Shown: positions 11,940 through 21,931 of the stretch, piece by piece
How the letters are laid out: the number at the start of each line of letters is the position of its first letter
Numbering within the stretch: the stretch's first letter is position 1
DNA from: Candidatus Krumholzibacteriia bacterium
GTDB lineage: Bacteria > Krumholzibacteriota > Krumholzibacteriia > JAJRXK01
Length of the DNA stretch: 64,000 bases
Direction of reading: 5' to 3'
Assembly (NCBI GenBank): GCA_041484665.1
Contig: JBGPIA010000016.1
Location: forward strand, 1-64,000
The notes under the pieces: model-generated
Told to the model about the DNA's origin: nothing
The model's database searches: none
What the model saw: only the letters and a program-made list of their open reading frames with translations
Program-made: the position numbers and the translations under genes

Positions 11940-13388
11940 ATGAACTTCACGAAATGGATCGCCGGGGTGGGCCTTCTCCTGCTGCTGCCAACTGGCGCGG
12001 GACCGGCACATGCCCAGGCGATCTTCTGGACCGATACCAACTTCCCCTCTCCCCTGGCCGGCAAAGCCGACCCGGTCGGCGCAAACCTCACGTCGGTCGC
12101 CCTTGGCGCAGGGACCTTGCCGGGAGGGCTCGCCTTCGACCCGGTGGGCGGGAATGTCTACTGGGTGGAGTCCGCCTTCTCGAACGCGCGCGTGCTGCGC
12201 GTGGGTCCGAGCCTGGGGAACATCACGCCGGTGGTCACCGGCGGATCGGTCTTTCGCGGCCTGGCGGTGGATGCGGTCAACGGCCGTCTCTACTGGACCT
12301 CGAGCAATCTCATCGTGGGGTCGAAGATCCACCGCGCCGGGCTCGACGGCTCCAGCCCCCAGGTGGTGCTCGACTTCGCCCCAGGACCCGCAAATCCACG
12401 CGGCATTGCCGTGGACCCCACGGCCGGCTTCATGTACTGGGCAGACTTCGACCTGGCGCGGATCCGGCGGGCAACTCTTGCAGGCGGTGCCGTGACGGAC
12501 ATCCGCACTCTGGGCGCCGGGAGCGGCGCCTGGGGCGTGGCGGTCGATGTGCCGTCGCAACAGATCTACTGGACGGAGTACAACACCGGCACGATCCGCA
12601 GCGGGAGCCTGGGTGGCAGCGACGTCACGACCCTGGTCTCCGGCCGCTCCAATCCTACCTACCTCGCGCTCGCCCCGACGGGCGGTAAGCTCTACTGGCT
12701 GGAGGCGGGGGCAGGCGCGCAGCGGATGGGACGCGCGGATCTCAACGGAGCGAACGTCGAGACCGTGCCAATCCCGATCGCCACCTACGGCGGCATCACC
12801 TTCGCGCCACTGGTCCCCACCAGCGTGCTGCTCACGAGGTTCGAGGCAGGCACCGTCCAAGAGGGGATCGAGCTGCGCTGGCAGTTCGGCAACTCCGGCG
12901 AGGTCACGAGCGCGGTCGTGGAGCGCCTCCCGGCGGCACCGGGCACATGGCAGCCCGTGACGCTCGAGCGCCACGACAGCGGCGGCATGGTCGTCGCGAT
13001 CGATCGCAGCGTGGCTGCGGGCCAGGCCTACGACTATCGGCTCGTCGTCACGACGGCCGATGGCCGGTCGGACACCTTCGGTCCGATCCACGCCACTGCG
13101 GGGAGTTCGCTCGTCGCGTTCACGCTCGAGTTACTCGCGCCCAACCCCACGCCTGGCGCGGTGCACGTGGCGTTCGCCGTGCCGCGGCAAGCCGCGGTGC
13201 GGGTCAGCATCTTCGACGTGCGCGGCCGCGAGGTCGAGACCCTCGTGGAGGGCACGAAGGCGCCGGGACGCTACGAGGTCCTCTGGTCGGGCACGACCCG
13301 GACCGGCCGGGCAGCCGCCGGCACGTACTACGTGCGGCTCGAGGCGCCCGGAGCCCACTTCGTCCGCAAGTTCGCGCTGCTGCGATAG
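11940..13388 (+). CDS. Secreted YWTD (LDL-receptor class B-like) beta-propeller protein with FlgD-like CTD
   Basis: Repeats IFWTD, VYWVE, LYWTS, MYWAD, IYWTE, LYWLE; signal peptide; PNP...FDVRGREV...AGTYYVRL. Confidence 0.88.
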   Translation: MNFTKWIAGVGLLLLLPTGAGPAHAQAIFWTDTNFPSPLAGKADPVGANLTSVALGAGTLPGGLAFDPVGGNVYWVESAFSNARVLRVGPSLGNITPVVTGGSVFRGLAVDAVNGRLYWTSSNLIVGSKIHRAGLDGSSPQVVLDFAPGPANPRGIAVDPTAGFMYWADFDLARIRRATLAGGAVTDIRTLGAGSGAWGVAVDVPSQQIYWTEYNTGTIRSGSLGGSDVTTLVSGRSNPTYLALAPTGGKLYWLEAGAGAQRMGRADLNGANVETVPIPIATYGGITFAPLVPTSVLLTRFEAGTVQEGIELRWQFGNSGEVTSAVVERLPAAPGTWQPVTLERHDSGGMVVAIDRSVAAGQAYDYRLVVTTADGRSDTFGPIHATAGSSLVAFTLELLAPNPTPGAVHVAFAVPRQAAVRVSIFDVRGREVETLVEGTKAPGRYEVLWSGTTRTGRAAAGTYYVRLEAPGAHFVRKFALLR

Positions 13389-13560
13389 GGACGTGACGCC
13401 TGGGGCGGCAGACCGACTGCCGCCCCGGGAGCCCTCGTCCTCCCACTCGCCAAGCTGCTCCGCAAGGCCGACTTCTTGCATCCGCGGGAGACCGGGCTCG
13501 CGCCGGACGGCACTGTCCGGCGGAATCACCAGCAACCCGCCACCCCGACGAGAAGCGACC

Positions 13561-15321
13561 ATGCTCCCGATGCGCCGCCCGTTGTACGCCCAAGGCGCGT
13601 CCGCGCTTGCAACCTCCGCGCGATGGGCAGGCTCGGCCGCCCTGGTCGTGCTGGTCGCGCTGGCCACGCTGACCGCGGTGGGCGCCACGCGGGTCAGCGC
13701 CGCTACTGCCGCGCTCGCACCGGCGCAGCCAACCGCGCACGCACCCGCACGCGCGGCCAGGCACGCGGCCACGCCTGCACCCGCGCGTCCGGCCGGCGCC
13801 GCAGCCCGCATCCAGAAGCTGCAGGAGCAGCTCGTCTTGGAGCCCTCCAACGCGCACCTCCACACGCAGCTCGGCGGCCTCTACCTGCAGGAGCATCAGC
13901 TCGAGCAGGCGCGCGACGAGTTCCTGGCGGCGGTCCAGGCAGCCCCGGGCGATCCGGCCGCCCTGCTCAATCTGGGAGTGTGCCTGCTCGAAATGAAGCG
14001 CTACGGCGAGGCCGCGCAGCTGTTGACCGCTTGCACGACGCTCGCGCCCGACTCGGCGCGGGGATACGAGCTGCTGGCAACCGCGCAAGCCAAGGCGGGG
14101 GACGTGGGCGCGGCGCGGCAGACGTGGGAGCGGGGACGCGATCGCACCGCGCTGCCGTTGTCCGATCGTGTCGTGTTCACCCAACACATCGCGCAGAGCT
14201 GGCTCGACCAAGGCAAGCTGCCCGAGGCGGCGGACGCCCTCGAGCATGACCCCAGGCTTCTGGCGACTGGAGAGGCGCGGCCGCTGCGGGCCATGCTGGC
14301 ATTCGCGTGCCTTTCCATGGCCAAGGAGGCCAAGCAGGCAGGTGACGAGGGACAGGTGCTGCAGGCCTGCCAGCGTGCGCGCGCCGCGGGCACGACCAAT
14401 CCAGCGGCGTTCACCATGCCCGCCGAGCTGCACTTGGCGGCCGGCCGGCTGGACGAGGCCGACGCTCTCCTGAAGGAGGCCGCCTCCTCGCTGCCGCATG
14501 AGGCCGCGATCCCCTTCCTCCAGGGGCGCGTGGCCGAGCGGCGCGCCGACCTGCCGGCGGCTGCCCGGGCCTACCATGAGGCGGCGCAGCGCGACGCCAG
14601 CCTCCCCGGCGTGCAGGCGGCGCTGGGCTGCGCCCTGGCGCAGCTGGGAGACGACAGCGCAGCCGCGCAGGCCCTGGCGCGCGCGGCCAAACGCGGCGAA
14701 GGCGGCGCCGCCGTCAGCTTCAACCTGGGCATCGTGCTGAGCCGCCAGCAGCGCTGGGCGGAGGCGATCCCCTATCTGAACCGCGCAGTGGAGAGCGACC
14801 CCGACCTGAAGGATGCCTACCGCGCGCTGGGGACGGCCTGCCGCAAGGCCGACCGCTACCGCGAGGCGGTCCAGGCCTACACGAAGCTGCTCGAGCGTTT
14901 CGGCCCCGACGCAGGCGATCTCCGCCAACTCGGCTTCGCGCTGGCGAAGCTGCGGCGCCACGCGCAGGCCAGCGAGAGCTACGCCAAGGCCGCGCAGCTG
15001 GAGCCGCGCGACTTCGCCACCCACTACAGCCTGGGCCAGTCGCTGCTCGAGCTGCAGCGCTACGACAAGGCCGCCGACGCGTTCGCCGCAGCATCGGCCA
15101 TCGACCCCCAGAGCGAGATCGCGCACTTCAGCTTGGGGATCGCCCACCAGAGGGCGCAACGCTACGCGGATGCCATCGCCGACTACGGGCAGGCACTACA
15201 GCTGCAGGCCACCTACCGCGCATATATCAATACTGCGGTCTGCTACAAGGAGCTCGGCCAGAAGCAGAGCAGCGAGAAGTACGTCAAGCTGGCCGCCGAG
15301 CTGAAGAAGAAGAGCGGGTGA
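13561..15321 (+). CDS. Exported tetratricopeptide-repeat protein
   Basis: Hydrophobic N-terminus followed by many TPR units (e.g. ALLNLGVCLL, SFNLGIVL, HYSLGQSL, HFSLGIAH). Confidence 0.85.
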   Translation: MLPMRRPLYAQGASALATSARWAGSAALVVLVALATLTAVGATRVSAATAALAPAQPTAHAPARAARHAATPAPARPAGAAARIQKLQEQLVLEPSNAHLHTQLGGLYLQEHQLEQARDEFLAAVQAAPGDPAALLNLGVCLLEMKRYGEAAQLLTACTTLAPDSARGYELLATAQAKAGDVGAARQTWERGRDRTALPLSDRVVFTQHIAQSWLDQGKLPEAADALEHDPRLLATGEARPLRAMLAFACLSMAKEAKQAGDEGQVLQACQRARAAGTTNPAAFTMPAELHLAAGRLDEADALLKEAASSLPHEAAIPFLQGRVAERRADLPAAARAYHEAAQRDASLPGVQAALGCALAQLGDDSAAAQALARAAKRGEGGAAVSFNLGIVLSRQQRWAEAIPYLNRAVESDPDLKDAYRALGTACRKADRYREAVQAYTKLLERFGPDAGDLRQLGFALAKLRRHAQASESYAKAAQLEPRDFATHYSLGQSLLELQRYDKAADAFAAASAIDPQSEIAHFSLGIAHQRAQRYADAIADYGQALQLQATYRAYINTAVCYKELGQKQSSEKYVKLAAELKKKSG

Positions 15322-15330
15322 CCCGCGGCG

Positions 15331-18300
15331 TCAGCGCAGGAGGACCATCTTGCGCGGCGTACCGTGACCGTCGGCGACGAGCCGGTAGACGTAGGTGCCG
15401 CTGGCGACGGCATTGCCGCCATCATCACGGCCGTCCCACACGATGTCCTGCGCTCCAGCACGCTGGACGCCGTCCAGCAACGTGCGCACGCGACGCCCGC
15501 GCAGATCATAGATGCGCAGCGTCGCGGGCCCATCCTGTGGAAGCGTGAACGCGATGCGCGTGCTGGGATTGAACGGGTTGGGGACGTTCTGGGCCAGCGT
15601 CAGGGTGCGCGAGGCGGGCGTGGGAGGCGCCGCGGTGGGACTGCCGAGCTGGATCTCGAAGTTGTCGATGGCCCAGCCCCAGCCGTTGACGAAGTCGTCG
15701 GCGAACAGGCGCAAGCGCAGCAGCACCGTCTGCCCGGGCGTGAACACGTTGAGCAGATCGAACCGGTGGTGGCGGAACATCGAAGGGTCGCCGTTGGCGC
15801 CGGCGTTGAACGCAGCGAACCACGCCGGATCCCGCCAGCAGTCATAGCCGGCCTCGATGGGAATCCAGGTCACTCCGTCGGCCGAGCCCTCCAGCACGAC
15901 ATAGTCGTAGAAGTTCGGGTCTCCGAAGACGCTCCCCACGTCGCCGGGCTCCACAATGGCGATCTCGTCGAAGGCGACGTAGGCTTCGGCCTGGGCTACA
16001 CGGATGGGGACCTTCAATCGATAGAGCAGGGTCTGGTTGTCCGCGTACGGGTGGCTCGAGTGGATGGCGCCGCTGCCGAATCCAGCGACGCTCCCGACGG
16101 TGAACCCGTTTCCGGAGAAATCCGACGTCGCGCTGTCGAAGTTGTTCTGGTAGGCGAAGACCGGCGCGCCCAGCACGATCACGTCGATCGACTTGTGGAC
16201 CGATTCGTAGATCGTCCCGCCCTTGAAGCCGCGAGCGAACACGGTGCGCGTCCCAGCGCCGACCACCGGCGTCTGCTCCAGTGCATCCTGGTGGAGGGTG
16301 TTGGCCGGCAGCGTGGTGAGCCGCGCGCCGTCGACGAACACCTGGGTCGAGTCGTACTCGGAGCGCAGGTTCAAGTCGATGGACAGCTGCCCATCGGGAC
16401 CCTGGTACAGCTGGTCGATCAACGGACGGAAGGTCTGGCCGGCGATCAGCTGGGGCAGCGCGACGCTCCAGATGCCGCGGCCGTGCGTCCCCAACACGAC
16501 CTCGTCCTCGCTCTGGACGAGCTTCCACACGGCGACGTTGGGGAGGCCGTTGTCGGCCGCGCTCCAGCTCGCGCCGTCATCGAGCGACTCGAACAGCCCG
16601 ATCTCGGTACCCGCCCACATGTGATTGGGATCGTCGGGGAAGACCAGGAGATCGTACACGGCAACGTCCGGGAAGCCGTTCGTGCTGGGGGATCCCGAGG
16701 CGAACCCCGTGATGTCCTGCCACGCGGCGCCGTAAGTGGTCGTCCGCAGGATCTTGGGACGCCCGGCAAACGAGAACAACGTGTAGGCGGTCCCCGCCTG
16801 GGTGGGGTGAGTGGCCAGCCCCGAGATGCCGCCCATGGTCATGGCGGAGTAGTTCGTCGTCGGCGCGAAGGAGGTGCCGCCGTTGGTCGAGACGAAGATG
16901 CTCCCGCTGCCGTCCATGCGCTGGCCCGCCCACACCACCGACGGACTTGCGCGTGAGATCTGGACGGCGGCGAACGACGAGATGGGCCCCCATTGCACGG
17001 TGATCGGGGCCAGCGTCCAGCTGCCCCCGAAATCCACCGAGCGCCAGACGCCCGAGGAGCCTACGGCGAACAACAGGTCGGGACTTGCGTTGGTCTTGGC
17101 GATCTTGGTGATGAACGGCGCGGTCGCGCTGCCAATGTTGGTGAGACCGTTGGTGGCCGATCCCCACGACAACCCGCCGTCGAGCGAGCGCTGCAACCCG
17201 TTGTACTGGTATCCGCCGATGATCTTCTGCGGATCGTCGAAGTTCCAGGATGCTTCGTAGCCGTCGCCGCCGATGGCGAAGCTCCACGGATCGGTGCGAG
17301 CGGGATCGATGGACGAGAACCACGTTCCGTTGTCCTGCATGCCGCCGATGTAGGCGCTGGCGCCGGGGCGCTTGTCCACGCCGTAGAACTGCGTAGTGGT
17401 CAGCCCGTCGATGGGCGCGGACCAGCCCGTCGCCTGGTCGCTGGAGAGGCCCACGCCGCCGTCGTTGAGGTTCACCAGCCGCCAGCTTCCAGCCGTCCCG
17501 GGGATGACCACCAGGTTGTGGTTGTCCACGTGCACGGGACCAACCAACAGCAAGCTCGACGTGCGCAGATTGCTGAGGCCTCCCGCCATCTGGATCTTCC
17601 ACAGGCGGATGCCACCTACGTAGACGATGTTGGGATCGGTCGGGTGGCAGACGATGGTGTTGTCGTACCAGCCCTGCGCCCCGAGCCAATTGGGCTCTGG
17701 GCCGCTCTCGGACGTGCGCGCCCAGCTGGCGCCGGAGTTCCGCGAGATCCACAGCTCCGCGTGGGAGGCCCCTTCGGCCGCCGCGTACAGCAGGTTGACG
17801 TCGGTGGGGGAGATCGCCAACTCGAAGCGGCCCGTGAAGTCGGTAATGCCGGAATTGGTCAGCACCCAGGTCGTGCCGCCGTTGGTGGACTTCAGGATGC
17901 CCTTCTCGCGCACGGTGGCGTACAGCACGTTCGCATGGCCGAGTGTGGCCACGATCTGCAGCACCCGCTTCACGCGCCCCCCGGCTCCCAAGTCGGTTTC
18001 GGCGTACACCTCGGTCCACGAGGTGCCGCCGTCCACCGACTTGAAGATGCTGGAACGGGGGGCCAGGGCCTCCTTGTAGCGGCCGGGAGTCGCGGCCACC
18101 AGCACGGTGTCGGGACTGTTCGCGCTGACGACGATCCGCGCGATGTTGTTGAACGACACGTTGTCGATGGTCGAGGCCAGATGCGTCCAGGTCTGACCGC
18201 GGTTCGTCGACTTCAGGACGCCGTTCCCATTGACGGTGTCGATATTGTAGAAGCTCTCGCCGGTTCCCACGTACAGCACGTCGTGGTCGCTGGGGGCCAT

Positions 18301-18831
18301 GGCGATCGCCGAGCACGCCAGAGTGGGGAAGCCGGCCGTCAGCTCGGTCCAGATCGCCCCGGCATTCACGGTCTTCCAGACGCCGCCGCCCACGCTGCCC
18401 AGAAACCAAGTGTTCCCGGTGGGGTCATCTGGATCGACCACCAGCCCGCGCGCGCGCCCGGCGACGTTGCCCGGACCGCGGTTCACCCAGGTCAACGTCG
18501 CGGACGGTCCCTTTTTGGCACGCAGGGCCGCGCTCAGCTCGCGGATGCGATACCCCGGGCGGTACTCCGGCAGCGTTCGGTCGCTGGGAATGCGCATCTC
18601 GTAGAGGATGCGCGCGAACTCGTCGGGATTGTCCGGCTCCGCCGCCCGCCCGCGCCCCGCGGGGTCGGTCCCGGCGTCGACCGCGTTCGCGTCCTGGCCG
18701 GCGGGCAGCGCCGCGTGCCGCAGCGTCACGGCAGGCGGCTGGGGCGCGCCCGAGCGCGAGGGGATCCGGGCGAGAACCAGCAACGAGAGGGAAGCGGCGG
18801 CGATGAGCGGGCCGCGGCGGATCCAGCGCAT
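15331..18831 (-). CDS. Large secreted BNR/VPS10-like beta-propeller (glycosyl hydrolase-like) with FlgD-like CTD
   Basis: GPGNVAGR, repeated SxDGGxxW/STNGGxxW Asp-boxes, GGMQDNGT, GTHGRGIW, QNVPNPFNPSTRI...WDG; RBS before ATG 18831. Confidence 0.9.
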   Translation of the reverse strand: MRWIRRGPLIAAASLSLLVLARIPSRSGAPQPPAVTLRHAALPAGQDANAVDAGTDPAGRGRAAEPDNPDEFARILYEMRIPSDRTLPEYRPGYRIRELSAALRAKKGPSATLTWVNRGPGNVAGRARGLVVDPDDPTGNTWFLGSVGGGVWKTVNAGAIWTELTAGFPTLACSAIAMAPSDHDVLYVGTGESFYNIDTVNGNGVLKSTNRGQTWTHLASTIDNVSFNNIARIVVSANSPDTVLVAATPGRYKEALAPRSSIFKSVDGGTSWTEVYAETDLGAGGRVKRVLQIVATLGHANVLYATVREKGILKSTNGGTTWVLTNSGITDFTGRFELAISPTDVNLLYAAAEGASHAELWISRNSGASWARTSESGPEPNWLGAQGWYDNTIVCHPTDPNIVYVGGIRLWKIQMAGGLSNLRTSSLLLVGPVHVDNHNLVVIPGTAGSWRLVNLNDGGVGLSSDQATGWSAPIDGLTTTQFYGVDKRPGASAYIGGMQDNGTWFSSIDPARTDPWSFAIGGDGYEASWNFDDPQKIIGGYQYNGLQRSLDGGLSWGSATNGLTNIGSATAPFITKIAKTNASPDLLFAVGSSGVWRSVDFGGSWTLAPITVQWGPISSFAAVQISRASPSVVWAGQRMDGSGSIFVSTNGGTSFAPTTNYSAMTMGGISGLATHPTQAGTAYTLFSFAGRPKILRTTTYGAAWQDITGFASGSPSTNGFPDVAVYDLLVFPDDPNHMWAGTEIGLFESLDDGASWSAADNGLPNVAVWKLVQSEDEVVLGTHGRGIWSVALPQLIAGQTFRPLIDQLYQGPDGQLSIDLNLRSEYDSTQVFVDGARLTTLPANTLHQDALEQTPVVGAGTRTVFARGFKGGTIYESVHKSIDVIVLGAPVFAYQNNFDSATSDFSGNGFTVGSVAGFGSGAIHSSHPYADNQTLLYRLKVPIRVAQAEAYVAFDEIAIVEPGDVGSVFGDPNFYDYVVLEGSADGVTWIPIEAGYDCWRDPAWFAAFNAGANGDPSMFRHHRFDLLNVFTPGQTVLLRLRLFADDFVNGWGWAIDNFEIQLGSPTAAPPTPASRTLTLAQNVPNPFNPSTRIAFTLPQDGPATLRIYDLRGRRVRTLLDGVQRAGAQDIVWDGRDDGGNAVASGTYVYRLVADGHGTPRKMVLLR

Positions 18832-19033
18832 GGATGCTTCCTCGAGGTGAGGGGGTACAGGTGAAGACCGGCCGGCTCCTGGCGCCCAGGCGCTGGCGAT
18901 CGGCCGCGGGCGCAACCCCACCGAGCGCGCGAAGGACATAGCGCCCGTCCCGGGTTGGTCCCAAGCCTAACCCGGGAAGGGGTCCGATTTCCAGTCTCCT
19001 GCGGCTGGGGGGGGCCACCGTCGACACCCCGGG

Positions 19034-20419
19034 TCAACGCAGCAGCAGGATGCTCCGGCTGGCCGCGCGCGCTGCACTCTCCACTCGCACGATGTACACC
19101 CCTGCTGCCACGCGCTGCGCGCTTGCATCGCGGCCATCCCAGAGAACCGCGCCGCTCGCCCCCGCCAACTGGAGGACGCGAACGCGCCGCCCTGCCAGGT
19201 CGTGGATCGTGAGCAGCGTCGTCTCGTCGGTGCCTGCGGCCGGGCCATCGGCGGCGATCTGCGGCTGCGCGGCGAACGTCAGATGGACGCTCTGCCGGAA
19301 CGGATTCGGAAATGCTTGCAGCGTCAGCATCGCACGCACCGGTGGGGCGGGCGGAGCGCCCACGTAGGCACAGCCCTCACCCAGCGCGCCGATCAGAGCC
19401 CCGCAGGGGCTGCGTCCCGGAAGGCATGCCGAGGCCTCGCCCAACGTGTACTCGCCGTCGGGCGTCGGCGCTGCGGCGCACGCCGCCGGTGCGCAGAACA
19501 GGGGATCTAAGGTCAGCGTGAGGTCGTACTGCGCGGTGGAGGTGCCGTCGAAGAAGGCACGCGCGGGGTCGATCAGCGAGCAGTAGAAGTGAAAGCTTCC
19601 GCTCACCTGGACGTAGACATCCATGCCGGTCGGACCAAAGGGGTAGCAGTTGCCCCATACGATGCAACGATTGAACTGGACGTCGGAGTCCCGGATGGAG
19701 AAAACCCCGCCGGATCCCCCTGAACCGTGGTTGCTCGTGATGGTCGTGCCGTTGAACGTCACGATCGACTGATTGCAAAAGACCCCGCCGCCCTCGTTGC
19801 CGTGGATGGCGCAATCGGTCACCGTCGCCAGCGTGCCGATCAAGCTCAGCGCACCCCCCGAGCCGCCCGAGTTTCCCTTCAGCACGCAGGCGGTCACGAT
19901 GATGTGGGACTGATCGGCGCTCACGGCGCCGCCGGAGCTCTGCGCCCGGTTGCCGACGAAGACGCAGTTGCGCACGTAGGGTCCCGAGAAGTTGCGGCAG
20001 CGCATCGCTCCGCCCGTGCCGGTGGTGAAATCTCCCACGGCCACCCCGTGGGTGACGGTGAACCCCTCGATCCGCGCAGGCCCGGGCAACTCGCCGCTGT
20101 GGAAGTCGAAGGCACGGTGGGGCTCGCTGTCTGATCCTCCGCAGTCGATGATCGTGGCGGCCGGTCCGGACTCGGACAGGACGACGATGCTCTTGCCGCC
20201 GAAGTCGATGTCGCGATTGCCGCTCCCGGAGTAGGTTCCGGCCGCGACCAGTACCGTATCGTCGGTGGCGGCCGCGGCGATCGCGAGCTGCAGCGTGGAC
20301 GCATCGGCCGGAACGTGCACGGTGGCCGCCTCGACCGAACGGGCGCCCCAGGGCACACCGATGCAAAGCCATAGCAGACGAGCCAACGACAGGCCGTTTT
20401 GCCGTCGACGAGCACTCAT
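19034..20419 (-). CDS. Secreted right-handed beta-helix (pectin-lyase fold) protein with FlgD-like CTD
   Basis: ATVHVPAD...DTVLVAAGTYSG..NRDIDFGGK, GGA repeats, DPLFC, PNPF...WDGRD...GVYIVR. Confidence 0.85.
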   Translation of the reverse strand: MSARRRQNGLSLARLLWLCIGVPWGARSVEAATVHVPADASTLQLAIAAAATDDTVLVAAGTYSGSGNRDIDFGGKSIVVLSESGPAATIIDCGGSDSEPHRAFDFHSGELPGPARIEGFTVTHGVAVGDFTTGTGGAMRCRNFSGPYVRNCVFVGNRAQSSGGAVSADQSHIIVTACVLKGNSGGSGGALSLIGTLATVTDCAIHGNEGGGVFCNQSIVTFNGTTITSNHGSGGSGGVFSIRDSDVQFNRCIVWGNCYPFGPTGMDVYVQVSGSFHFYCSLIDPARAFFDGTSTAQYDLTLTLDPLFCAPAACAAAPTPDGEYTLGEASACLPGRSPCGALIGALGEGCAYVGAPPAPPVRAMLTLQAFPNPFRQSVHLTFAAQPQIAADGPAAGTDETTLLTIHDLAGRRVRVLQLAGASGAVLWDGRDASAQRVAAGVYIVRVESAARAASRSILLLR

Positions 20420-20525
20420 GACCAGCCTCCCTTCCTCACCAGGAACACGCCAGGGCCCTCCAATGGCAGGCCAGCGGCGCAAGAAACCTTCGCTTGGCGT
20501 AGTCTGCAGGCCTGCGGCCCAGGAA

Positions 20526-20559
20526 GCCGTGTTCTCGGGTAGGCCGTATTCTCGGGTAG
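20526..20559 (+). repeat. Two tandem 17-bp direct repeats in a divergent intergenic region
   Basis: GCCGTGTTCTCGGGTAG followed by GCCGTATTCTCGGGTAG (one mismatch). Confidence 0.75.
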
Positions 20560-20619
20560 GATCGTGTGCGTCCTGAGGAGCCGAGCGCGCTCGTGCGCGC
20601 CCGGGGGGGAGGACCGCCC

Positions 20620-21282
20620 ATGGACTTCGACACCCGCGTCAAGCTTGCTGTCTATCGCGCGTTCGCCGCGACCGGGCAAGCGCCTGCCGGGGGCGAGCTG
20701 GCCGCCGAGCTGGCCGTCACGCCGGCGGAGATCCACGCCGCGTTCCAGCGCCTGCGCGCCAAGCGTCTGCTCGTCCTGGAGAGCGATGGGGCCAGGATCC
20801 GGATGGCTCCACCCTTCTCGGCCGTCCCAACTCCGTTTCGGGTGGGCGCCGCGGGACGGAGCTACTTCGCCAACTGCGTCTGGGATGCGTATGGCGTGGC
20901 CGCCGCCCTCCACTGCGATGTCGACGTCCGGGCGAGCTGCGGCTGTTGCAAGGCACCGATGGAGCTGGCCGTCCGCGACCGCAAGCTCGTCCCAAGCGCC
21001 GGCGTCGCCCACTTCGCGGTGCCCGCAGCGCAATGGTGGGAAGACATCGTCTTCACCTGAAGCACGATGCTCCTCTTCCGGTCGGAAGAGCATGTGACGC
21101 TGTGGTGCGAAGCGCGAGGCCTTCCCCTCCGCCCGCTCGTCTCCCTCGACCAGCTCTGGGAGCTGGCCCTCGCCTGGTACGAGAATCGGCTCACAGAAGA
21201 GTCGCGCCGGCCCGGGCCGGCGGAGATGCGCCAGATCTTCGCGCGGCTGGGGCTCTTGGACGCGTTCTGGGAGGTGCCGTGA
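20620..21282 (+). CDS. MerB-like organomercurial/organometallic lyase, predicted selenoprotein (UGA 21058-21060 = Sec147)
   Basis: N-terminal wHTH, MAPPFSAVPTPF, NCVWD (equivalent to MerB Cys96/Asp99), SCGCC. ORFs 20566-21060 and 21067-21282 are in the same frame, joined as DIVFT-UGA-STMLLFRSEEH, where UGA aligns with MerB Cys159. SECIS-like hairpin follows. GGAGG RBS before ATG 20620. Confidence 0.85.
21063..21096 (+). promoter_or_regulatory. Bacterial SECIS-like stem-loop
   Basis: CAC-G-ATGCTC-CTC-TTCC-GGTC-GGAA-GAGCAT-GTG folds into a long bulged stem. Its G-first apical loop lies about 20 nt after the UGA. Confidence 0.75.
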
Positions 21283-21433: not shown

Positions 21434-21931
21434 ATGCTCGAAGCGATCAAGCGACTTCTCAGCGGTCAGGCCACCGGCCAGGCCGCGCGACCGCAGCCCG
21501 ATCGTGCGGGCGAGTCGGACGAGCAACGCCTGCGCATTGCCGCATGCGCTGTCCTGCTCGAGATCGCCCACGCCGATGGCGAGTTCACGACGGAGGAGCG
21601 CGCTCACATCGAGGCGGCGCTGGTGCGCCACTTCGATCTCTCCACGACCGACGCGCGCGAGCTGATGGCGCTCGCCGAGGAGCGGCGGCGTGGGGCCGTG
21701 GACCTCTACCAGTTCACGTCGCTCCTGACCGCCGGCTACGACGAGGGGCAACGGCTCCTGCTGGCGGAGCTGCTGTGGCGGGTCGTATATGCGGACGGCA
21801 AGCTGTCGCAGCACGAGGACTACCTCATGCGCAGGCTCGCCCACCTGCTCGACCTGCGGCCTGGCTACCTCGCAGTGGCGCGCAACCGGGCGGTGCCCAG
21901 CCCGCCGGAGTCGCCGCCCGCCTCATCGTAG
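21434..21931 (+). CDS. TerB family (tellurite-resistance-like) protein
   Basis: AACAVLLEIAHADGEF...DLYQFTSLL...LWRVVYADGKLSQHEDYLMRRLAHLL. Confidence 0.88.
   Translation: MLEAIKRLLSGQATGQAARPQPDRAGESDEQRLRIAACAVLLEIAHADGEFTTEERAHIEAALVRHFDLSTTDARELMALAEERRRGAVDLYQFTSLLTAGYDEGQRLLLAELLWRVVYADGKLSQHEDYLMRRLAHLLDLRPGYLAVARNRAVPSPPESPPASS

Follow-up and report, generated by a model that had tools for sequence, protein, structure and literature searches.

Organomercurial lyase (MerB) binds R-Hg+ through Cys96 and Cys159, Asp99 protonates the carbon, and the resulting Hg(II) passes to MerA (PMC10114901). About half of the MerB-encoding genomes lack MerA (PMC8261052), and both the origin of MerB and the selective pressure acting on it are described as open questions (PMC8261052, PMC10114901). 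A selenocysteine (Sec) form of this fold has already been published, namely SaoL, a MerB-like organometallic lyase selenoprotein (Haft & Gwadz, bioRxiv 10.1101/2022.07.06.499078); the passages of that preprint on SaoL report no biochemical assay.

SaoL is also the only Sec-MerB named in the available sections of two reviews (PMC13188914, PMC9312934), and the word 'MerB' is absent from the main text of PMC2398784 and PMC12013277. In the literature within reach, which did not extend to Haft & Tolstoy 2025, the family table of BSepDB or the deep-Sep supplements, we found SaoL as the only Sec-MerB and nothing on the clade described below. BSepDB (PMC13326102) may file members of this clade under SaoL.

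Gene model

The window analyzed here, a stretch of 64,000 nucleotides from a Candidatus Krumholzibacteriia bacterium, contains one intact 220-codon MerB-fold gene at 20620-21282 on the plus strand. Under translation table 11 this gene appears as two same-frame ORFs, the first ending at 21060 and the second covering 21067-21282, with TGA-AGC-ACG between them. When TGA is read as U, a single ORF of 220 residues results, which contains one TGA in frame at codon 147 (21058-21060) and ends with another at 21280-21282. The first-pass annotation had joined the two ORFs in this manner, and the translation bears it out; the residues that it had listed, Cys86, Asp89 and the UGA at codon 147, are all present in the sequence, with a C86-U147 spacing of 61. 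The features of the locus are as follows:

20620..21282, plus strand: MerB-fold gene of 220 codons, predicted selenoprotein with Sec147 (translation, Pfam, fold model, profile alignment)
20608..20612, plus strand: Shine-Dalgarno-like GGAGG, seen in the sequence 7 nt before the ATG, function putative
20620..20814, plus strand: N-terminal winged-helix domain, residues 1-65 (structure match; the MerB/MerB2 superposition covers this domain too)
20875..20877, plus strand: Cys86 codon, equivalent to MerB Cys96 (profile alignment)
20884..20886, plus strand: Asp89 codon, equivalent to MerB Asp99, the proton donor in MerB (profile alignment)
20938..20949, plus strand: C107-G-C109-C110, with C107 equivalent to the structural Cys117 of MerB (profile alignment); putative metal site with H158
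21058..21060, plus strand: in-frame UGA, predicted Sec147, equivalent to MerB Cys159 (homologue codons, profile alignment, contigs)
21073..21090, plus strand: SECIS-type hairpin, stem 21073-21079 with 21084-21090, GGUC loop 21080-21083, 19 nt past the UGA
21187..21279, plus strand: conserved C-terminal extension of the clade, about residues 190-220, lying past the region aligned to MerB/MerB2
21434..21931, plus strand: downstream, co-oriented TerB-family gene (PF05099, 105.6 bits)

Residues 66-188, a stretch that includes the UGA codon, match the Pfam MerB family (PF03243) at 94.6 bits (gathering cut-off 27). The N-terminal part alone scored 59.9 bits and the C-terminal part alone 15. This gene is the sole PF03243 match in the host genome (G000), the assembly of which is 93.65% complete.

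A sequencing or assembly error that turned TGC or TGT into TGA was ruled out, because contigs from three of four runs (X3, X8 and X10), none of them flagged as a possible source of the window, span codon 147 and keep it unchanged, no differing letters being listed for these assembled contigs. In run X4, a 151-nt contig covers the codon and ends 20 nt beyond it. No sigma-70 promoter or terminator was found at the gene. The divergent intergenic region upstream holds a direct repeat of 12 nt in two copies 18 nt apart (20531-20561).

Comparison with MerB and SaoL

The AlphaFold model, computed from a 63-row alignment, reached a pLDDT of 97.6. All 11 Foldseek matches at E ≤ 0.001 were MerB or MerB2. 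The VIA structure search likewise returned a common fold with Bacillus MerB2 (PDB 5C17; Z 19.4, rmsd 3.2, 187 residues aligned) and with MerB of plasmid R831b (PDB 3F0O, 3F2F, 3F2G; Z 15.1, rmsd 4.2, 183 residues aligned), and the matches after these were to winged-helix domains only. Identity to MerB/MerB2 was 16-23%. In the profile alignment, C86, D89, C107 and U147 fall on MerB Cys96, Asp99, Cys117 and Cys159, with the register at the Cys159 column fixed by the C160S entry 3F2G. The first three MerB residues thus have their equivalents, the predicted Sec occupies the Cys159 column and Cys160 is absent; the placement of Sec at the second catalytic Cys position, proposed from the single sequence, agrees with this alignment.

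Among 146 Sec forms, 143 have C86 and 145 have D89; H131 never varies, W88, W139 and W140 are nearly invariant, and residue 146 is T in 142, N in 3 and S in 1. Because of the 16-23% identity and these residues of the clade's own (W88, H131, W139, W140), the pocket may differ from that of MerB. Residues 1-192 of the model align to MerB2, and the structural alignments stop at residues 192-194. In contrast to MerB and MerB2, the clade carries an extra conserved C-terminal extension of about 30 residues, in which G211, L212, F216 and W217 are nearly invariant.

The N-terminal domain raises the possibility of a one-component metal sensor, in which the winged helix would bind DNA and the Sec site would sense metal. 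Residues 1-65 match LexA (Z 9.9) and give weak MarR_2/GntR Pfam hits, and two Cys-form relatives (P0146 and P0266) have a C-terminal extension that resembles, by eye, a LuxR-type HTH. However, MerB itself has a superposed winged-helix domain, at the start of helix 3 the surface positions are variable and the core conserved, and no conserved neighbouring target gene was found. We regard a sensor as quite improbable.

Membership of classical MerB (EC 4.99.1.2) was rejected (16.1 bits against a cut-off of 200 for NF033555, and 29.5 against 193 for NF009710), and canonical-type MerBs group apart in the tree. Membership of SaoL (NF040728) was rejected as well, at 45.8 bits against a cut-off of 140. 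This profile exceeded its cut-off in none of 301 Actinomycetota genomes; the best score there was 61.8, canonical-type MerBs scored alike, and the comparison had no true SaoL as control. The profile of SaoC, a marker of SAO, matched neither the host genome nor any control genome.

The clade and SaoL have in common PF03243, the Cys/Asp/Sec triad and the truncation at the UGA by gene callers, and both have Sec at the MerB Cys159 position, to which Sec162 of SaoL aligns (10.1101/2022.07.06.499078). They differ in motif, which is TU in the clade (T146 in 142/146) and CU in SaoL. They also differ in setting: SaoL lies in a nine-gene SAO locus, whereas the clade lacks that locus and any conserved neighbour. 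SAO was reported from 52 of 15,511 genomes, all of anaerobes (10.1101/2022.07.06.499078), whereas the clade occurs in several phyla. The first-pass annotation had likened the protein to SaoL, which holds for the Cys-to-Sec substitution; the score and the motif place it in a different clade. None of 63 clade members reached a dedicated NCBIfam 20.0 model. Sec in the MerB fold is not new, and the clade described here represents a separate, uncurated family of predicted selenoproteins.

H158 is present in 40 of 42 Sec forms having both C107 and C110, and in 0 of the 104 others. This suggests that C107/C110/H158 (20938-20949 and 21091-21093) may be a vestigial second zinc-type site, a reading confounded by kinship among the sequences; such a site agrees with the treble-clef origin proposed for MerB (PMC10114901, section 7). 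Position 154, the codon of which lies inside the hairpin, is Cys in 15/48 Cys forms and Arg in 146/146 Sec forms. It is possible that the constraint of the hairpin RNA on this position reshaped the zinc-type site.

Codon 147 across homologues

We compared the codons at column 147 in related loci. Of 153 loci fetched, 151 cover this column (35 GTDB, 6 from the own phylum, 30 Actinomycetota and 80 metagenome loci); the codon is TGA in 145, TGC or TGT in 6 and TAA or TAG in none, where one gene is counted twice (L036 and L059) and the metagenome loci include close kin. The alternation of Cys and UGA that a selenoprotein had led the first-pass annotation to expect was thus observed. TGA was found in all 35 GTDB loci covering the column and in 18/18 strong Acidobacteriota loci (L193 repeats L010), and four further intact UGA genes occur in Actinomycetota beyond the pooled set. 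Three copies (L165 in G275, L079 in G204 and L041 in G035) carry frameshifts or extra stops; L165 also lacks the hairpin.

A database search gave 2785 matches at E ≤ 1e-5. Of 269 database proteins examined, 199 stop exactly one column ahead of 147; these truncated forms include a 147-aa NCBI entry that bears the name 'organomercurial lyase'. Among 59 near-full-length proteins without UGA, column 147 holds Cys in 48, and the rest have W (5), G, L, Y, A, H and one gap. Homologues with Trp at this column, which the first-pass annotation had named as evidence against Sec, were examined. Each of the 80 metagenome relatives of entry P0004, where Trp was called, carries TGA, and the Trp of P0004 is for this reason most likely an alternative-code gene call; we infer the same for P0005 (G) and P0125 (W), which, like P0004, would be such calls on short contigs. 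P0059, P0079, P0091 and P0127 form a separate tight subgroup with Trp or Leu at 147 that has also lost Cys86 (shifted C-S-A-W-D), and this sister subgroup is probably non-catalytic.

These data bear on the possibility that the UGA is a true stop, either in a pseudogene or between two coupled genes, the second of which starts anew at the ATG two codons on, or that it is read as Trp, Gly or Cys. An ATG does stand at +3 in 135/146 sequences, databases call a form of 146-150 aa for clade members, and W or G appears at the column in a few entries. However, the column never holds TAA or TAG, and a split would delete the Cys159 equivalent. A second gene restarting at ATG 21067 was rejected, because the +3 ATG is replaced by ATC or ATT in 11/146 sequences and the spacer is invariant. 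Recoding to Trp or Gly was rejected on the TGA codons of the relatives, including 80/80 for the W entry, and on the tRNA complement of the host, where the only tRNA with a TCA anticodon is tRNA-Sec; the gene itself also ends in TGA. We consider a true stop or another recoding highly improbable.

The Sec machinery presupposed by the first-pass annotation is encoded in the host genome, with selA, selB (including the SelB wing domains) and selD over cut-off and tRNA-Sec at 73 bits. The selD of this genome (C10:74967, L004) is itself a selenoprotein gene, with an in-frame TGA, a GU motif and a 10-bp hairpin about 20 nt past the UGA. Among 35 GTDB hosts with the UGA gene, selA was matched in 30, with 28 of these scores over cut-off; four of the other five have tRNA-Sec at 65-73 bits, and the fifth, G012, a small MAG of 2.1 Mb, showed no clear Sec gene. 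In Actinomycetota, selA matches were found in 204 of 301 genomes and in 26 of 29 hosts of an intact single-UGA gene. Of the remaining three hosts, G030 and G417 have tRNA-Sec, and none was seen in G361 (unpublished). The host counts include kin, which are not independent, and the unpublished genomes G010 (L016), G208, G361, G418, G513 and G635; after removal of the three unpublished Actinomycetota genomes, 26/26 UGA hosts have selA or tRNA-Sec. Cys forms occur in selA-positive genomes too (4/5). In the own phylum, co-occurrence with selA is uninformative, since selA is present in 152/155 genomes. Judged from the sequences, UGA 147 is read as selenocysteine with a probability that we estimate at about 0.96.

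The hairpin downstream of the UGA

The hairpin consists of a 7-bp stem and a GGUC loop 19 nt downstream of the UGA, with a folding energy of -10.1 kcal/mol, and its lower stem can extend over 21067-21093. The published SECIS model (PMC13188914, section 5) specifies a G-led loop of 3-9 nt, a stem of 4-16 bp, a distance of 16-37 nt from the UGA and an MFE ≤ -7.5, and the hairpin conforms to it in loop, stem, spacing and MFE. With the bacterial SECIS consensus (PMC13188914, legend of Fig. 2A) it has in common a 4-nt loop starting with GG, a 7-bp upper stem and the 19-nt spacing, and it differs in the unusual degree to which its primary sequence is conserved across phyla.

Codons +6 to +8 are TTC (144/146), CGG (144/146) and TCG (145/146), and the loop is GGTC in 145/146 sequences; the hairpin codons are fixed at synonymous sites, even though six codons exist for Arg and six for Ser. 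In the 7-bp stem, compared across 121 distinct sequences, 96.5% of the cells pair, and two-sided changes were found in 5/7 pairs, mostly in the outermost pair and with 1-4 double changes in each inner pair. None of 500 shuffles, which ignore relatedness, reached the observed values, and slid controls were 45-67% paired. The folding z-score taken alone was modest (-1.6 to -2.3, and 0.02 for a 63-nt stretch). The motif is absent from 6/6 loci with a Cys codon and decayed in a few UGA loci (L145, L165, L203 and L205). An Rfam search of the hairpin region returned no match at E up to 1. The GGUC loop presumably resembles that of E. coli fdhF.

Two distant MerB-like genes (L163 in G253 and L210 in G616) have UGA at both the Cys96 and the Cys159 columns and Glu at the Asp99 column, and in both the second UGA is trailed by the same GGUC hairpin.

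Distribution and genomic context

A quick tree of 118 rows placed the protein in an all-Sec clade of 36 rows (SH-aLRT 100), where its nearest relatives, at 67% identity, come from other lineages. The tree rows comprised 60 of the 145 UGA loci or other UGA rows plus the window protein, with redundant, partial and unpublished rows and SaoL left out, and non-Cys full-length proteins were grouped under the Cys label. The Sec/non-Sec labels need 7-10 changes on this tree; because well-supported branches force only 1-2 of them, repeated switching between Sec and Cys is unsupported. Within the own phylum, a match was found in 8 of 155 genomes (6 UGA, 1 Cys and 1 fragment), and in 0/9 of the own family. 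Intact UGA forms occur in 29/301 Actinomycetota and 17/201 Acidobacteriota genomes (seeds included), and the records of relatives name Thermoanaerobaculia, Chthoniobacterales, Pyrinomonadaceae, Gaiellaceae, Cytophagia and others.

The gene is flanked by a divergent gene for a FlgD-Ig-tailed protein and by the co-oriented TerB-family gene. Upstream, several secreted-looking proteins with FlgD-Ig-like C-terminal tails are encoded at 11940-20437 (one was scanned). TerB was rejected as a conserved partner, as its homologue is found in no other fetched locus, and a conserved operon was rejected, as the largest neighbour cluster covers 8/152 loci, mostly close kin. No mer or sao family was found among 135 flanking ORFs (loci L007-L080, rough coding score), and three of these ORFs are metal-related (ArsR, CDF and a chromate transporter). 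Queries with MerA, MerR and the DF family gave no hit in the clade's loci, whereas the MerR query hit 3/5 canonical-type merB loci fetched as controls; the flanks are short, with at least 1 kb on both sides in 87/151 loci and at least 3 kb in 35/151. In contrast to classical MerB, none of the clade's loci examined had a mer-operon location, although neither this location nor a MerA partner strictly defines classical MerB. By sequence comparison, the clade is separate and widespread, patchy in its distribution and without conserved neighbours.

MerA scored over cut-off in 3 of 60 UGA hosts, and a fourth host has a cut fragment just under it (up to 22 candidates scored per genome); MerT was found in 4/60. 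In a published survey, MerA was present in 7.8% of genomes (PMC8261052). The host genome, at 93.65% completeness, has no MerA over cut-off (best 326.7 against 454 bits). No merR-operator-like site was found upstream of the Sec gene. A scan of 136 upstream regions gave one loose full match and one dyad, and the loose pattern hits the genome at least 30 times.

The first-pass annotation had described the gene as stand-alone, with no mer or sao genes nearby. This is correct at the locus. On another contig, at the end of C12 (155-2391, minus strand; loci L191/L192), the genome has a mer-like cassette lacking merA and merB. The cassette comprises an operator-like dyad, a regulator of MerR type (140 against 151 bits), a Cys-form member of the DF (seleno)protein family and a MerT-MerP(HMA) fusion; a transposase-like start comes next. 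The fusion, of 491 codons, has an in-frame UGA at codon 360 in a UxxC motif with a less clear hairpin, and is a second candidate selenoprotein. Action of the Sec gene in trans with this cassette is possible but unsupported, given that the region upstream of that gene holds no operator-like site.

A Cys-form relative annotated as merB (L180:5995-6678) lies on a Sphingomonas plasmid, with no mer genes in the 12 kb shown; its neighbours are enoyl-CoA hydratase, CoA transferase and keto-acid cleavage genes.

Proposed activity

On the mechanism that we propose, SelB acting on the GGUC hairpin would insert Sec at UGA 147, a step well supported by the sequence, and Cys86, Asp89 and Sec147 would form the metal site, as the computed fold and residue equivalences predict. 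The thiolate and the selenolate might then grip an organo-soft-metal(loid) cation R-M+, Asp89 could protonate the carbon, and R-H would leave while the metal stays on the S/Se site. Cell thiols or other carriers would then accept the metal, or the enzyme would let go of it slowly. Since selenols are for the most part ionised at neutral pH, a proton relay from the Cys159 position to Asp99 would need another source, for which the invariant H131 is a candidate. By analogy with MerB, we slightly favor protonolysis of a carbon-metal(loid) bond on this thiolate/selenolate/Asp site. The genomic context, which shows no tie to mercury, and the chance that the pocket differs from that of MerB count against this reading. 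Because the gene is lone and scattered, in hosts mostly without MerA, its product probably serves broadly in the detoxification or salvage of trace organometal(loid)s. Among single substrates, organomercury is the foremost candidate, though a tentative one.

Since most hosts lack MerA, the metal must either be handed to thiols or other carriers or remain bound. This borders on another possibility, a stoichiometric scavenger or chaperone for soft metals (Hg, Cu, Ag, Au, As), in which the Cys/Sec pair would be a high-affinity trap without turnover. The lack of MerA in most hosts fits this reading, as does the binding of other metals by MerB variants, such as Cu by D99S (PMC8261052, PMC10114901). 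For SaoL, Haft and Gwadz raise binding, as opposed to catalysis, as a reason for Sec, and the point that Hg-Se affinity could block turnover has been raised (10.1101/2022.07.06.499078). However, Asp89 is retained in 145/146 Sec forms, and the equivalent Asp in MerB donates the proton, although it also binds the product Hg as a ligand; moreover, just 3/135 flanking ORFs are metal-related. A pure scavenger thus seems doubtful to us.

The protein might instead be a redox selenoprotein, in which a Cys86-Sec147 selenosulfide cycle reduces a small substrate on a reused MerB fold. Prokaryotic selenoproteins are thought to be mostly redox proteins (PMC9312934), 16/48 Cys-form relatives have C-x-x-C at 86/89, and the neighbours of the Sphingomonas plasmid relative are genes for CoA transferase and keto-acid cleavage rather than mer genes. 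Sec forms, however, keep Asp and never have Cys at position 89, and no reductase or thioredoxin neighbour recurs in the loci. A redox role appears unlikely to us, and MerB-type protonolysis remains the reading that we favor.

Implications

Gene callers cut a large MerB-fold clade just ahead of its second metal ligand. A published survey of MerB (PMC8261052) requires Cys159 and, in the genomes that it sampled, which are other than ours, lists no MerB for Acidobacteria or Verrucomicrobia (Table 1). A screen of this kind would discard the clade's entries, because they end before column 147.

A bolder and rather unlikely proposal is that the protein demethylates methylmercury independently of MerA, as a selenoenzyme of soil and sediment bacteria, and retains the released Hg on its selenium. 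If so, a common MerB-type gene would exist where the Cys159-based survey lists none (Acidobacteria, Verrucomicrobia), and environmental demethylation potential would be undercounted and dependent on selenium supply.

The clade supplies an unusually conserved bacterial SECIS, and its natural Sec, Cys and two-Sec variants of one 220-residue protein make the question of the substrate directly testable. If organomercury is cleaved, a selenium-dependent route escapes the surveys of methylmercury degradation; if it is not, the clade points to non-mercury chemistry behind the evolution of the MerB fold.
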